A stretch of DNA of 12,078 nucleotides, taken from a virus. The position numbers and the translations under genes are program-made. Numbering within the stretch: the first letter of the stretch is position 1; the number at the start of each line of letters is the position of its first letter. The stretch lies in the UHGV virus genome UHGV-0150633; one strand, given 5' to 3'. Of the stretch, positions 1 to 12,078 are shown piece by piece. The notes under the pieces are model-generated. The model did not search any database. It saw only the letters and a list, made by a program, of their open reading frames with translations, and was not told where the DNA came from.

Positions 1-49
1 TGACGGGTAAAAAGTGGATAAAATAATTTTACCCACCGGATTTTTACCC

Positions 50-1201
50 ATGCTCACCGTTAAGCAGATTGAAGCAGCAAAGCCGAAAGAAAAACCATAC
101 CGCCTTCTCGATGGTAATGGCCTGTATCTTTATGTCCCTGTATCAGGGAAAAAGGTATGGCAGCTTCGCTACAAGATTGACGGTAAGGAAAAAATACTGA
201 CCGTAGGAAAATATCCGCTAATGACTTTGCAGGAGGCAAGGGATAAGGCATGGACTGCGAGGAAAGACATCTCGGTTGGCATCGATCCGGTAAAGGCGAA
301 AAAGGCTTCGTCTAACAACAATTCCTTTAGCGCCATTTACAAGGAATGGTACGAGCATAAGAAGCAAGTCTGGTCAGTAGGCTATGCAAACGAACTTGCC
401 AAAATGTTTGACGACGACATTTTACCCATCATCGGCGGCCTTGAAATTCAGGATATTGAGCCGATGCAACTGCTGGAAGTAATCCGCAGATTTGAAGATC
501 GCGGTGCAATGGAGCGAGCCAACAAAGCCCGCAGAAGATGCGGCGAGGTTTTTCGTTACGCTATTGTCACTGGTAGGGCTAAATATAACCCGGCACCTGA
601 CCTTGCTGACGCCATGAAGGGATACCGCAAGAAGAACTTCCCGTTTTTACCTGCCGACCAGATCCCGGCATTCAACAAAGCACTTGCAACATTTTCAGGA
701 AGTATCGTATCGCTCATTGCGACCAAAGTTTTACGCTACACAGCCCTAAGAACAAAAGAGCTTCGTTCCATGCTATGGAAGAACGTCGATTTTGAAAACA
801 GGATTATCACCATCGACGCCAGTGTGATGAAGGGACGAAAAATTCATGTGGTCCCGATGTCAGACCAGGTGGTTGAACTTCTCACTACGCTAAGCTCAAT
901 CACCAAACCAGTCTCAGAGTTTGTTTTTGCCGGGCGCAACGATAAGAAGAAGCCAATCTGCGAGAACGCGGTATTGCTTGTGATCAAACAAATTGGCTAT
1001 GAAGGGCTGGAAAGCGGTCACGGATTCAGGCATGAATTCAGCACGATTATGAACGAGCACGAATGGCCTGCTGATGCTATTGAAGTGCAACTGGCACATG
1101 CCAACGGCGGATCTGTGCGCGGTATTTACAACCATGCGCAGTATCTCGATAAGCGCAGGGAGATGATGCAGTGGTGGGCTGACTGGCTTGATGACAAATG
1201 A
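50..1201 (+). CDS. int: Site-specific tyrosine integrase (phage integrase with arm-type N-terminal DNA-binding domain)
   Basis: ORF 14-1201 in the track. N-terminus MLTVKQIEAAKPKEKPYRLLDGNGLYLYV...WQLRYKIDGKEK is the characteristic arm-binding domain of P4-type phage integrases, and the C-terminal half has tyrosine-recombinase-like blocks (HGFRHEF, IYNHAQY). ATG at 50 chosen over the GTG at 14 because family N-termini start a few residues before the KPKEKPY block; the start is uncertain by 12 codons. Confidence 0.9.
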   Translation: MLTVKQIEAAKPKEKPYRLLDGNGLYLYVPVSGKKVWQLRYKIDGKEKILTVGKYPLMTLQEARDKAWTARKDISVGIDPVKAKKASSNNNSFSAIYKEWYEHKKQVWSVGYANELAKMFDDDILPIIGGLEIQDIEPMQLLEVIRRFEDRGAMERANKARRRCGEVFRYAIVTGRAKYNPAPDLADAMKGYRKKNFPFLPADQIPAFNKALATFSGSIVSLIATKVLRYTALRTKELRSMLWKNVDFENRIITIDASVMKGRKIHVVPMSDQVVELLTTLSSITKPVSEFVFAGRNDKKKPICENAVLLVIKQIGYEGLESGHGFRHEFSTIMNEHEWPADAIEVQLAHANGGSVRGIYNHAQYLDKRREMMQWWADWLDDK

Positions 1202-1616
1202 AATAGCTAACACTTAAATGATAACTAATGGAACAGAACATTGTAATCTAATGATTATGTATACTGCATCCATCTTTTCCCGCCATGACAAGTTTTTGTT
1301 TATGGTATAAATTCTCTGCACAGAGTCCTCTTATGTCAAAATCACTCTTAACACATTTGAGATAGACGTGCTAACTATCAATGACTCTATTGAGTTGATT
1401 TCGTTAGCAAACGAATATTTTCAAGCTGGTTTTAACTTTGCATAAGAAACTTTCTTATGTGACAATGTTGATTTGTCAAGGAAATAAAATGATATTAACA
1501 TGAATGGCATAAATACAAAGTATGATGCAAATTGTAAGTTAGCCACATGCATTCGTGATTGCTGTATTAATAATTTCGTATGTTTATGTTTTTTTTAAAA
1601 CTATTCGGAAATAAAA
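1202..1616. promoter_or_regulatory. AT-rich intergenic region between int and the membrane-protein gene: candidate promoter and possible attP location
   Basis: 415 bp without a convincing ORF. Possible sigma70-like promoter TTGATT (1468-1473), 17-bp spacer, GATATT (1491-1496); such matches are common by chance in AT-rich DNA. Near-direct repeat TCTTATGTCAAAAT (1329-1342) and TCTTATGTGACAAT (1453-1466), and inverted repeat CATAAG/CTTATG (1441-1446 / 1454-1459). In P22-type genomes attP sits between int and the seroconversion genes; no tRNA-3'-end-like core was recognised by eye. Confidence 0.3.
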
Positions 1617-2942
1617 ATGAGCGATAGTGAATTTTTCAGTTTTATATTCACACACTGGATTGGTTACATGCTATTAACCTTTCTTTGCGCGTTCTTATGC
1701 TACAAAGCAATAAGAAAAACAACCTATGGAATAATAGATCCAGCGCACTACTTTTTTGCCTTCGGTTCTGGAACTGCATATTCAGTTGTCATAATTCTAT
1801 ATCTTTACGGGTACATAGACGATTACCTAGCCATAATGGTACTACTTAACTTTATTATCCTTGTTATAACATGGAGATTTTCATTTAGTCTAAACATAAA
1901 GCCAATAGCTGGTCTTAGAAACGCTCTTTTCAGAGAGGTAGACAGCAACTATAAATTTTCATTTAAGATTATTTTTGTTATGTATGTTGTATTAACAGCG
2001 TACTATTTATTAAATGTTTCATTCTCTTCGTTTGGTGAATCAAGGTTTGAGGCAAATAAAGGTCTTGGAGTAATTGTAAGAATACTAGATGTTGTGCGAT
2101 TGTTATTGTCAGCTATGCTGGCTATAAATATATACAAAACAAAAAATAAGTTAAATAGAGCAATTATTATATTTTTTGCAATTTTAGTGGCTGTTATTGC
2201 GTCTTTTGTGTCAGGTGCTAAGTTCTCTCTTCTTGAACACGCGCTAGTATCAATAGCGGCAATATATATATATTCAGGTGTGTCTCCAAGAATAAATTTA
2301 AAGTTCTTGGCAATCAGTCTCGTATCTTTTTCAGCCATGATTGCATATGTTCTTTATATTTTGACGTTTACATCTGAATCTATAGGTTATACCAGTTCTC
2401 AGTATACAGACTTGCCTGTTATATTTGAGCTATTCCTTATGAGAATAATTGCAAATGGAGATGCTTACTATTTTTCTCTGCCTTACGACACTATCAATAG
2501 AATAGTTGTTGAAAACCCTTTTATTCAGCTATTTGGATATATAGGTGGAAATGGATTTGTAAAAACCGTGTTCTCATATAACTATTTTGATAATGATGTA
2601 GGTAGATTGATATGGAAACAATGGTACCCATGGGATGATATTGCAAGAGGTCCAACAAGTCACTTTGATCTTGCAGGATATGTGTTTTTTGGATTTATTG
2701 GAAGCTTAATTATGACGTCTATTATAGGTTTTATAATAGGAAGGATTTCAAAAGCAAAGTATAAAAACTCAGGTTGCATGCTTCCATTTACATCTTCGTT
2801 TTTGGCTGTTTTTTATATTAGATCTTTGCAGCTACTGTTATCGCCTCCTGTTGGCATTGCTTATGTTGTTGATATGTCTGTATTTTTAGTGGCATTCTCT
2901 TTTGTGTTGCTATGCCTTAGATTTGCGAGAACTCAAAGATAA
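1617..2942 (+). CDS. Polytopic inner-membrane protein, candidate O-antigen polymerase (Wzy-like) or O-antigen modification (seroconversion) gene
   Basis: 441-aa ORF, hydrophobic throughout with roughly ten or more predicted membrane-spanning stretches and Lys/Arg-rich short loops. Markedly AT-rich codon usage compared with flanking genes. Lies between int and the tailspike, where P22 carries gtrABC and Sf6 carries oac. Lacks the N-terminal R...H motif I associate with acyltransferase-3 O-acetylases, so Wzy-like or GtrC-like is favoured; exact function not determinable without a search. Confidence 0.6.
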   Translation: MSDSEFFSFIFTHWIGYMLLTFLCAFLCYKAIRKTTYGIIDPAHYFFAFGSGTAYSVVIILYLYGYIDDYLAIMVLLNFIILVITWRFSFSLNIKPIAGLRNALFREVDSNYKFSFKIIFVMYVVLTAYYLLNVSFSSFGESRFEANKGLGVIVRILDVVRLLLSAMLAINIYKTKNKLNRAIIIFFAILVAVIASFVSGAKFSLLEHALVSIAAIYIYSGVSPRINLKFLAISLVSFSAMIAYVLYILTFTSESIGYTSSQYTDLPVIFELFLMRIIANGDAYYFSLPYDTINRIVVENPFIQLFGYIGGNGFVKTVFSYNYFDNDVGRLIWKQWYPWDDIARGPTSHFDLAGYVFFGFIGSLIMTSIIGFIIGRISKAKYKNSGCMLPFTSSFLAVFYIRSLQLLLSPPVGIAYVVDMSVFLVAFSFVLLCLRFARTQR

Positions 2943-11511: not shown

Positions 11512-11512
11512 T

Positions 11513-12028
11513 ATGGCGTTAACACACCACGAACTCTGTCAGATTGCGTACAAGTTCCTTAAGCGCAACGGGTTCAAGGTTTGCTTTCATGACCGCTTTG
11601 TTGCTGTAACCAGTACCGGAGAACAGCCAGATGCTATGGGATTCAGAAATTCAGCATCATGCCTGATAGAGGCGAAGTGTTCTCGTGCTGACTTGTTGGC
11701 AGATAGAAAAAAGCGTTTCCGTAAAAATCCCTCACTTGGCATGGGCGACTGGCGATTCTTTATTAGTGAGCCGGAAATTATTTCAGTTGAGGATTTACCT
11801 CCCGGCTGGGGATTACTTCACGTTGTTAACGGAAGAGTACGGAAAGTACATGGATGGCCCAGGGGTAATTGCTGTTGGGGTAATCCTGACGATAAGCCAT
11901 TTACTGGGAATAAGCAGGTTGAATGCGATTACATGTTATCTGCATTAAGGCGCATGGAGTTGAGAGGGCACCTTAATGAAATATATGACGGTGTGATTGT
12001 TAATAAGAAAGAAGGAAACGCGGCATGA
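11513..12028 (+). CDS. PD-(D/E)xK nuclease-fold family protein (hypothetical early-region protein)
   Basis: ATG at 11513 with AAGGAG (11501-11506) and a 6-nt spacer; the track's longer ORF begins at an upstream TTG. Product MALTHHELCQIAYKFLKRNGFKVCFHDRF... carries E7, P39-D40 and E53-A54-K55 in the spacing typical of restriction-endonuclease-like PD-(D/E)xK folds. Confidence 0.75.
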   Translation: MALTHHELCQIAYKFLKRNGFKVCFHDRFVAVTSTGEQPDAMGFRNSASCLIEAKCSRADLLADRKKRFRKNPSLGMGDWRFFISEPEIISVEDLPPGWGLLHVVNGRVRKVHGWPRGNCCWGNPDDKPFTGNKQVECDYMLSALRRMELRGHLNEIYDGVIVNKKEGNAA

Positions 12029-12078
12029 TCACTATTACCAAAGGGCGACTGCTGACAATCAAGCAGTGGCGCGAAACA
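12025..12078 (+). CDS. Hypothetical protein, 5' end only (runs off the window)
   Basis: ATG at 12025 overlapping the stop of the preceding gene (ATGA); open to the end of the window (MITITKGRLLTIKQWRET...). Confidence 0.4.
   Translation, partial: MITITKGRLLTIKQWRET

Follow-up and report, generated by a model that had tools for sequence, protein, structure and literature searches.

Genes and features of the window

The window, as we call the whole 12,078-nt stretch of DNA analyzed here, carries an integrase gene, a putative conversion gene, a block of P22-type tail genes and a set of early-left genes. Three sequences served to define its features: scaffold_10 of ENA assembly ERZ28598464 (L004), to which the window is identical at 12,078 of 12,078 positions; contig L009, whose locus coordinates become window coordinates when 500 is added; and the argW prophage of E. 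coli Z1323HEC0423 (NZ_CP148334.1; L001), our full-length comparator. The features are as follows.

1–49 (+): region upstream of intS, holding the intS promoter region and the arm of attL on the phage side, with argW and the attL core just beyond the window edge
50–1201 (+): intS, tyrosine integrase, 383 aa (Pfam Phage_integrase, E = 4.8e-39; Phage_int_M; Arm-DNA-bind_3)
1202–1616 (no strand): AT-rich spacer (30% GC, by composition) from intS to the conversion gene, with no att core
1617–2942 (+): putative O-antigen conversion gene, Wzy-like polytopic membrane protein, 441 aa (33% GC)
2944–2984 (no strand): hairpin between the convergent wzy-like and tailspike genes (inverted repeat, 18-nt arms, 5-nt loop)
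2999–5038 (−): tailspike, 679 aa (Head_binding PF09008, E = 2e-64, residues 1–113; pectate-lyase-like domain)
5324–7243 (−): gp16-type DNA transfer (ejection) protein, 639 aa (phrog_770, E = 1e-229, profile positions 41–666 of 668)
7243–8625 (−): gp20-type ejection protein, 460 aa (PF16928 Inj_translocase, E = 3.2e-69)
8638–9294 (−): gp7-type ejection protein, 218 aa (PF25688 P22_gp7, E = 7.2e-87)
9269–9748 (−): gp14 homologue (DUF2824), 159 aa (PF11039, E = 1.3e-64; gene call in L004)
9748–10345 (−): remnant of an Sf6-type tail needle (gp26) gene (PF16532 Phage_tail_NK, E = 1.6e-107)
10345/10346 (no strand): deletion junction, with 1 nt of microhomology (A at 10346), from a three-way alignment with both parental sites in L001
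10346–10504 (+): 3′ end of an early-left gene, 52 codons, the 5′ two-thirds lost (phrog_614, profile positions 127–181 of 214)
10501–10827 (+): early-left accessory gene, 108 aa (phrog_3126, E = 2.9e-66)
10805–11029 (+): early-left accessory gene, 74 aa (phrog_4132, E = 6.7e-42)
11026–11511 (+): Ead/Ea22-like gene, 161 aa (PF13935, E = 1.1e-32)
11513–12028 (+): early-left accessory gene, 171 aa (phrog_9263, E = 1e-120; gene calls in L004 and L009)
12025–12078 (+): start of a DUF551 gene, 297 aa in full (L009 11525–12418), which runs off the window

The gp7, gp20, gp16 and gp14 genes are all near full length and follow the order seen in Sf6 (the P22 order). The called gp16-type gene carries PF26808 (Phage_P22_gp16), and the exact tailspike protein is already on record as an E. 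coli phage tailspike. Domain and profile matches therefore bear out the gene content given in a preliminary description of the window, which listed an integrase, a membrane-protein gene, a tailspike, three ejection proteins and early accessory genes as retained. It had also reported head, packaging and replication genes as missing; within the 12,078 nt we found no head, packaging, lysis, replication or immunity genes.

The identical 441-aa membrane protein is named O-antigen polymerase in NCBI/RefSeq and UniRef and is present on 129 contigs. It matches phrog_14022 and gives no Pfam match; its hydropathy profile shows about 9–11 hydrophobic segments plus one loop some 100 aa long. Seroconverting phages with phage-encoded O-antigen polymerases include Salmonella epsilon15 and Pseudomonas D3. 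As with their polymerases, the gene for a polytopic Wzy-like protein lies here near the integrase and tailspike region of a temperate podovirus-type phage; unlike them, the element has no identified inhibitor-of-polymerase partner, and the polymerase role is putative, the match to TIGR04370 (oligosaccharide repeat unit polymerase; residues 45–400, E = 2.8e-8) scoring 33.2 bits, below the curated cutoff of 40. As a lysogenic-conversion gene, this low-GC gene may have remained expressed. No conversion could be demonstrated for the candidate genes at the same position in the related phage Kapi1 (PMC8787464). In the Sf6 record, the spacer equivalent to 1202–1616 holds the oac promoter, and a terminator is annotated at the place equivalent to the 2944–2984 hairpin, which is likely to be a bidirectional terminator.

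The ea region at the right of the window is mosaic and closest to the ea regions of lambdoid and Stx prophages. No Pfam or PADLOC match was obtained for the 108-aa protein (10501–10827). Beyond the DUF551 gene, L009 continues with an 85-aa gene, torI and attR.

A junction between two truncated genes

The preliminary description had noted a junction near 10.33 kb. It is real, and the alignments place it at 10345/10346: all P22-like needle matches end at 10344–10346, and all ea-region matches begin at 10345–10346. Both genes that meet there are cut mid-frame. The needle remnant keeps codons 84–282 and has lost the N-terminal 83 codons relative to the 282-aa needle of L001; the in-frame sequence upstream of it is antisense ea DNA, and a complete gp26 with its portal-plugging N-terminal domain is not present. 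On the other side, 10346–10504 is 94.8% identical to the 3′ part of a 462-nt gene of L001 annotated as an HNH endonuclease.

In L001 coordinates, the junction joins position 33774 (needle codon 84 of 282) to position 7848, inside the early-left "HNH endonuclease" gene, and a collinear alignment of the window with L001 requires a single gap of 25,926 bp. The skipped segment of L001 holds gp10 and gp4; the coat, scaffold and portal genes; the terminase, lysis, Q, nin and replication genes; cII/cro/repressor and N; kil, erf and abc; and an IS100. By this comparison, the small terminase gene, the pac-bearing region in P22-like phages, was lost in the deletion.

L001 is ordered argW, intS, O-antigen polymerase, tailspike, ejection genes, needle, gp10 and so on to torI, and its intS, Wzy-like gene and tailspike block is 98.85% identical to that of the window. 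The argW prophages of Z1323HEC0423, ETEC-2264 and O114:H49 90-9280 are complete (about 39–40 kb), and their needle and the ea gene found at the junction are each about 94–95% identical to the window. The ejection genes of the full-length argW prophages are 79–89% identical to those of the window, and the gp16 homologue of L001 is longer.

Attachment sites and host flanks

We read the flanks of the element from public contigs that are 99.98–100% identical to the window. Besides L004, contigs from ERZ28594328, NCBI GCA_030132015.1, SRR14017552, SRR33821866 and SRR31227666 have this level of identity, and all of them contain the junction; the same junction is thus inherited across several samples. 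The integrated order is yfdC, argW, attL, intS and so on to torI, attR, dsdC, with yfdC-argW as the left host flank and dsdC-dsdX-dsdA following attR on the right. The preliminary description had held that a complete head module contiguous in the flanks would speak against a deletion derivative; what flanks the element instead is host DNA. The att repeats, tRNA and xis that it proposed to look for are all there: the 16-nt att core CTGCAGGGGACACCAT occurs in one exact copy at each end of the element, argW lies on the left, and torI lies downstream of the early genes. An int gene after torI and a tandem duplication, which it likewise proposed to look for, are both lacking in the identical contigs.

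The argW gene, a tRNA-Arg(CCT), ends 112 nt before window position 1 in L004, and the attL core begins 127 nt before that position, beyond the 5′ side of intS. The element is therefore integrated at the 3′ end of argW, as expected of an IntS-TorI module of the KplE1/Sf6/HK620 type. The attR core lies at window-equivalent positions 13773–13788 (L009 13273–13288), 74 nt after torI (L009 12999–13199), giving a core-to-core size of about 13.9 kb, within the 13–15 kb that had been predicted. intS adjoins attL and is transcribed away from argW, and torI, the RDF gene, adjoins attR at the opposite end; int and torI are likewise at opposite ends in L001. The membrane-protein gene had been described as att-adjacent, but no att core was found inside the window with up to three mismatches allowed, and attL lies on the far side of intS.

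The window IntS shares 381 of 383 residues with K-12 IntS, and the TorI of the element is identical to K-12 TorI at 66 of 66. For KplE1, PMC2951348 gives CTGCAGGGGACACCAT as the att core, puts attP between torI and intS and describes an intS promoter that overlaps attL; excision of KplE1 has been demonstrated experimentally, with torI carried on a plasmid in the excision assay. Since IntS, TorI and both cores match those of KplE1, for which supplying TorI brings about excision in vivo, the element would probably still be excisable as a non-replicating circle, with excision expected to depend on IntS plus TorI. In the source scaffold_10, the attR core has one G fewer and lies 50 nt from the scaffold end; if real, this shorter core could impair excision in that strain.

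Origin of the element

We conclude that the window very probably represents the bulk of a defective prophage at argW in the E. coli chromosome, about 13.9 kb in size, which arose from a P22-like phage of about 40 kb through one deletion. The earlier reading of the window as a deletion derivative of a P22-like prophage is upheld, with the type now specified as that of Sf6/HK620. Sf6 has an identical order of torI, attP (annotated between torI and intS in its record), intS, conversion gene, tailspike, gp16, gp20, gp7, gp14 and needle, but its conversion gene is oac where the window has a Wzy-like gene. Phages of the Sf6/HK620/Kapi1 type (Lederbergvirus and relatives) are 92–93% identical to the window in nucleotide sequence across shared blocks and have the same Sf6-type needle knob; in comparison, the element lacks everything from gp10 through the early-left recombination genes and its needle is truncated. 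In Kapi1, Sf6, HK620 and KplE1, attP lies between torI and intS, int and xis stand at opposite prophage ends, and the Sf6/HK620/Kapi1-type phages integrate at argW (PMC8787464). Portal, coat, scaffold, terminase, gp4 and gp10, all present in L001, are absent from the whole attL–attR element, which is therefore a remnant and stands outside the P22-like phages proper.

The ancestor would have been a temperate phage of about 40 kb of the Sf6/HK620/Kapi1 type with the IntS/TorI recombination module, its prophage ordered attL, intS, conversion gene, tailspike, ejection genes, needle, head genes and so on to early-left genes, torI and attR. A single illegitimate recombination event would then have deleted about 24–26 kb between needle codon 84 and the interior of the early-left gene, taking with it the head completion, capsid, packaging, lysis, late-control, replication, immunity and most recombination genes. 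The survivors would be the genes that lay no more than about 10.5 kb from attL or about 3.4 kb from attR. Replication, lysis and packaging of such an element should be impossible, and its tail genes are probably silent, since the late promoter and the Q antiterminator are gone. Copies of the deleted element differ by 0–2 substitutions in 10–12 kb, and the deletion must therefore be recent. A single deletion is the most economical history and falls short of proof, because we found no near-identical full-length parent prophage and all six contigs with the exact gp16 protein are already deleted forms.

A history of recombination between two prophages, or of several steps, is unlikely, though it has the best claim among the alternatives. 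The closest relatives of the two parts do differ (Sf6, 720R6 and Kapi1-like phages for the left, Stx and lambdoid ea regions for the right), lambdoid genomes are mosaic, and E. coli CP019961.1 shows multi-step decay at argW. However, the full-length argW prophages L001 and L003 have the same ea genes, in the same orientation and adjoining torI. The host flanks are collinear with K-12, so no chromosomal rearrangement took place, and one junction accounts for the whole structure.

It is quite improbable that the tailspike, conversion and ejection genes were kept by selection for their action on the envelope, as the preliminary description proposed, or that the element still functions as a satellite-like mini-phage. 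In favour of this, every retained ORF is full length against its family profile, the recombination module has stayed intact, the Wzy-like gene is, as a low-GC moron, of a kind known to be expressed in lysogens, and the lineage has been sampled repeatedly. Against this, geometry suffices: one internal deletion spares the att-proximal genes, and it cut both junction genes mid-frame. Because the copies are so nearly identical, the intact ORFs reflect youth, not purifying selection. Two near-identical loci from other samples (L007 and L008) have a larger deletion that joins window position 8932 to 11282 and removes the N-terminal part of gp7, gp14 and the needle remnant. Other argW remnants retain different sets of genes: the tailspike and ejection genes are absent from K-12 CPS-53, and gp20, gp16 and most of the tailspike are missing from CP019961.1, where part of gp10 survives together with the needle and gp14. 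In the element studied here, the deletion took the late promoter, Q, the small terminase and the pac site, no satellite or PICI-like functions (replication, primase, terminase-small or capsid-remodelling genes) were found between attL and attR, and PADLOC gave no defence matches apart from TorI's own family.

As the main state of the element, a small circular or tandem form of 13–15 kb, with torI joined to intS via attP, is very improbable. This idea arose because int adjoins the conversion gene and tailspike, an order that matches the attP form of the Sf6 record; since attP lies between torI and intS, the same adjacency is the normal left end of an integrated prophage of the Sf6/HK620/KplE1 family. 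A transient excised circle would be possible with IntS, TorI and both cores intact, and two metagenome scaffolds stop some 50 nt beyond one of the att cores, scaffold_798 within argW and scaffold_10 next to attR. Yet the long contigs all join attL and attR to host DNA, with one integrated copy in the identical contigs and a torI-core-intS junction in none. scaffold_10 runs through attL into 370 kb of chromosome, where an abundant excised form would have broken it, and the window has no direct or tandem repeats of note.

An assembly artefact (a chimeric contig or collapsed repeat) that conceals a complete prophage behind the junction is scarcely credible. In three samples short-read Logan contigs do break near it, at window 10626; the ea region recurs across lambdoid prophages; and neither the 5,426 complete E. 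coli genomes nor the viral, genome and JGI metagenome collections contain the junction. Yet it is identical in at least six assemblies from different studies and different assemblers (L004, L005/L009/L012, L010, L006, L014 and L015), among them 385-kb and 52-kb scaffolds and a 55-kb NCBI genome contig, with host genes on both sides at the spacing expected of a 13.9-kb element and 1 nt of microhomology in place of a repeat.

The deletion has left an ordinary cryptic prophage that shares both its type and its integration site with CPS-53/KplE1 of E. coli K-12. Both lie between yfdC-argW and dsdC with CTGCAGGGGACACCAT at each end, and both have intS and an O-antigen conversion gene on the plus strand, tail-gene remnants on the minus strand, an internal deletion and then plus-strand early-left genes and torI; repressor, replication and head genes are absent from both. 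KplE1 differs in its size of 10.2 kb, in having gtrABS (glucosylation) instead of the Wzy-like gene and in carrying tail-fibre-assembly remnants where the window has P22-type genes. The 13.9-kb element, with tailspike, gp16, gp20, gp7 and gp14 still intact, is much younger than KplE1, its only truncated genes being the two at the junction.

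Gene content and attachment sites

The element is an integrated prophage remnant, deficient in replication, lysis and packaging, that was most probably made by one deletion and has been inherited vertically in a repeatedly sampled E. coli lineage. The preliminary description, made from the sequence alone, had listed an integrase, a membrane-protein gene, a tailspike, three ejection proteins and early accessory genes. That inventory was correct, as confirmed by the following domains and genes. A minus-strand block running from tailspike to needle converges on the plus-strand genes for intS and the membrane protein.

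Features of the window (coordinates, strand, description)
50–1201, +, intS, with Phage_integrase, Phage_int_M and Arm-DNA-bind_3 domains
1202–1616, 415-nt spacer between intS and the Wzy-like gene, 30% GC
1617–2942, +, 441-aa polytopic membrane protein (Wzy-like), 33% GC
2999–5038, −, tailspike, with P22 head-binding and pectate-lyase-like domains
5324–7243, −, gp16
7243–8625, −, gp20
8638–9294, −, gp7
9269–9748, −, gp14/DUF2824
from 9748 upward, −, Sf6-type needle-knob gene
from 10346, +, final 52 codons of an early-left gene; coding returns to the + strand here
after the early-left gene remnant, +, four small ea-type genes, one of them Ead/Ea22
after the ea-type genes, +, DUF551 gene, of which only the start lies in the window

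The left flank carries fadL, mlaA, yfdC and tRNA-Arg(CCT) in that order, the tRNA ending 112 nt before window position 1. To the right of the window lie the DUF551 gene (297 aa), an 85-aa gene, a terminator-like hairpin, torI (66 aa), dsdC, dsdX, dsdA and emrYK. A 16-mer core, CTGCAGGGGACACCAT, is present in exactly two copies, one overlapping the argW 3′ end 127 nt before the window and the other 74 nt after torI (window-equivalent 13773–13788). The same sequence is the published core of K-12 KplE1/CPS-53 (PMC2951348). The preliminary description had estimated a size of 13–15 kb and named xis, att repeats and a tRNA as features to look for in the flanks; the element measures 13,915 bp core to core, and torI, the two cores and tRNA-Arg(CCT) are all there. 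Within the window itself, no tRNA, Rfam family, tandem repeat or att core was found. At the end of ENA ERZ28598464 scaffold_10 (L011/L013, window-equivalent ~13773–13788) the sequence of the attR core is CTGCAGGGACACCAT; compared with the contig locus L009 (window positions are L009 coordinates + 500) and with L010, another junction-bearing contig, it lacks one G. This difference is located 50 nt short of where the scaffold ends and may reflect either an error at the end of the assembly or a genuine core mutation, which would hinder excision.

A second 16-mer, TTGCAGGTTCGATTCC, identical to the argW T-arm, lies 20 nt upstream of the torI start codon (L009 12964–12979, window-equivalent 13464–13479). 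It was present in every family member examined (K-12, L019 10776; Sf6, L020 2952; L001; L003; L017), and in Sf6 it overlaps the annotated "pI" promoter and the boundary sequence bsq2. Together with the att core after torI, this 16-mer covers the last 30 nt of argW, which look as if split by a segment of ~294 nt carrying torI. The split could be a footprint of the arrival of the recombination directionality factor gene inside the att region.

The deletion junction

All database matches to the needle gene stop at 10344–10346, and all those to the ea region start at 10345–10346. We compared the window with L001, the full-length P22-like argW prophage of E. coli Z1323HEC0423, whose gene order is argW, intS, O-antigen polymerase, tailspike, ejection genes, needle, gp10, gp4, coat, scaffold, portal and terminase, followed by lysis, Q, nin, replication, cII/cro/repressor, N, kil, erf, abc, ea genes, torI and host DNA. 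In the alignment the window is collinear with L001 apart from one gap, which bears out the suggestion that it is a deletion derivative of a P22-like prophage. Window 9746–10346 corresponds to L001 34374–33774 and window 10346–10830 to L001 7848–7369, so that 25,926 bp of L001 are skipped (~24 kb without the IS100 of L001). The left breakpoint falls in codon 84 of the needle gene (282 codons in L001) and the right one 303 nt into an early-left gene of 462 nt; the two parental sequences have only a single A (10346) in common. Judged by this sequence, the junction bears the signature of an illegitimate, end-joining-type deletion that cut both genes, and is not a mosaic module boundary. The ancestor belongs with P22-like phages of the Sf6/HK620/Kapi1 type.

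A 26-nt pattern spanning the junction gave no matches in viral_contigs, genome_contigs or JGI metagenome_contigs, none of 5,426 complete E. coli genomes had a record spanning it in a search with 401 nt, and the longest fusion ORF (270 aa) had no exact-protein match. Junction-bearing contigs were retrieved by exact-protein look-up with a 218-aa gene call, gp16 and a 108-aa protein. ENA ERZ28598464 scaffold_10 (385 kb) is identical to the window over 12,078/12,078 nt, junction included. The junction is also present, with 0–2 substitutions relative to the window, in ENA ERZ28594328 scaffold_798, NCBI GCA_030132015.1 contig JASBED010000030.1 and Logan contigs of SRR14017552, SRR33821866 and SRR31227666. 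With six assemblies, made in several studies by several assemblers, a chimeric contig can for practical purposes be excluded.

Three independent Logan contigs with the junction (L006, L014 and L015) end at the same base, window 10626, inside the 108-aa ea gene, likely because further copies of the ea region beyond it exist in other lambdoid prophages that these genomes carry. Several truncated needle proteins are among those clustering with that of the window at 90%. A recurrent deletion hot spot was considered and dropped, because at least one of these proteins (P0010, E. coli CP019961.1) comes from a needle gene whose DNA is complete. A P22-like remnant at another chromosomal site (L018, Logan ERR3329187 contig 81) neighbors genes for a PBP5-type carboxypeptidase, a GyrI-like protein, a FUSC-family protein and DUF496. 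It contains an acyltransferase, a 601-aa tailspike, mnt, a shortened gp14 and a needle gene, the first 15 codons of which are unrelated sequence abutting opposite-strand genes, resembling the window junction.

Integrated order and excision

The preliminary description had also proposed a small circular or tandem form. This reading follows the P22/lambda arrangement, with xis and int together beside attP, under which int adjoining the conversion gene and tailspike would imply an unintegrated or tandem form. Members of the Sf6/HK620/Kapi1/KplE1 family have attP between torI and intS, and the attP core is so annotated in the Sf6 record; int and xis therefore end at opposite prophage ends (PMC8787464), and the KplE1 intS promoter overlaps attL (PMC2951348). 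The left 10.3 kb of the window is thus the normal left end of an integrated prophage. The order argW-intS-conversion gene recurs in the complete prophage L001 and in K-12 CPS-53, the ea genes lead to torI, attR and host DNA and not back to int, and the window has no terminal direct repeats indicating circular permutation. Breaks of metagenome scaffolds ~50 nt outside one att core were rejected as evidence of excised forms, strain mixtures or duplicated dsdCXA explaining them equally well. In practice, int beside the conversion gene and tailspike in Sf6/HK620/KplE1-type prophages should be read as the normal integrated arrangement, not as an attP-form circle or a tandem.

The closest known element is CPS-53/KplE1, with the same site, core and overall architecture. 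IntS is identical to that of K-12 CPS-53 at 381/383 aa and TorI at 66/66 aa. The recombination module has stayed intact and is all but the same as in KplE1, which has been studied experimentally; CPS-53/KplE1 differs in cargo and is more decayed. The remnant would be replicated passively with the chromosome. By analogy with KplE1 when TorI is provided, IntS and TorI could probably still excise it, and the excised circle would be lost. Membership tests placed it with neither phages nor satellites. The remnant might instead be a "mini-prophage" that can still excise and that benefits the host through alteration of the O-antigen by its Wzy-like gene, perhaps along with a low level of tailspike expression; once excised, it could pass between strains by generalized transduction from a co-resident P22-like phage and reintegrate at argW via IntS. 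Such an element would amount to a cargo-only mobile seroconversion cassette; we consider this very improbable.

Retained genes and further decay at argW

The genes acting on the cell envelope had been proposed to stay under selection. No support for this was found, and several observations oppose it. A single internal deletion necessarily leaves the att-proximal genes, here int, the conversion gene, tailspike and ejection genes on one side and, on the other, torI with the ea genes. Between copies there are no more than 2 substitutions in 10–12 kb; the deletion is therefore recent, and intact ORFs are uninformative on purifying selection. The deletion took away the late promoter region together with the Q antiterminator, and upstream of the tail genes no promoter signal rose above chance. 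Promoter-like and terminator-like sites in the window are no commoner than in shuffled sequence, so no tail-gene promoter can be claimed. The tail and ejection genes would be silent DNA.

The Wzy-like gene is the one plausible candidate for continued function. With its spacer (window 1202–2942) it has 30%–33% GC, versus 43%–51% elsewhere in the element, as is typical of O-antigen morons acquired horizontally; the AT-rich spacer upstream stands where Sf6 has the oac promoter, and the identical protein occurs on 129 contigs. Its family, phrog_14022, is of unknown function in PHROGs, and the NCBI name is O-antigen polymerase. This putative assignment draws on a sub-threshold family match, source names and topology, and the protein may modify O-antigen polymerization. 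Small ORFs in the spacer (e.g., 32 aa at 1500–1598) have no ribosome-binding sites. PADLOC gave no defense-system match for the ea genes or the Wzy-like gene; its sole match, of TorI (L009 12999–13199) to "mad1" (mads_1, E = 7.6e-14), most likely reflects the common excisionase/HTH fold and not a defense function.

An in-frame extension of 32 codons is possible for the tailspike ORF (window 5039–5134, minus strand; MKRRTLLKSLLGLTSLLPVKFAASQNLQGKSI), and it resembles a Sec/Tat-type signal peptide. The sequence upstream of the tailspike is 99.5% conserved in the plaque-forming phages Bas106, Dewey, Huey, Louie and APC_JM3.2. The Bas106 annotation uses the extended start, whereas other records and Prodigal begin at MSDITPN, and the extension is probably a chance one.

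Beyond correct annotation the element matters little. It is a very young and cleanly resolved case of prophage decay, a single blunt deletion with both parental sites identifiable. The tailspike, ejection and Wzy-like genes, all intact, could offer incoming P22-like phages a reservoir for recombination and could affect O-antigen typing.

A larger second deletion in related samples adds to this example. It joins window 8932 (in gp7) to 11282 (in Ead/Ea22) with TA microhomology, and was found in L007 1–4292 (Logan ERR4899572) and L008 1–4149 (ERR164831 and two further samples). These contigs are 99.98% identical to the window over 4746–8932, with 1 substitution in 4.2 kb. The 2.35 kb lost in this second case include the first junction as well as gp14, the needle remnant and the N-terminal part of gp7. 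The event was either nested in the first deletion or a larger one that arose independently from the ancestor common to both. Like this larger deletion, the varying gene subsets kept by further argW remnants count against selection on the retained genes; K-12 CPS-53 is without tailspike or ejection genes. Multi-step decay at the argW site is illustrated by the remnant in E. coli CP019961.1 (L017, 3198064–3218621), which carries gtrABS and a K-12-like yodE. Still present there are the needle, gp14 and portions of gp10 and gp7; gp20 and gp16 are gone, and only 320 nt of the tailspike are left. At least three separate internal deletions can be seen, joining the N/ral region to the Q region, Q to mid-gp10, and mid-gp7 to the tailspike start.
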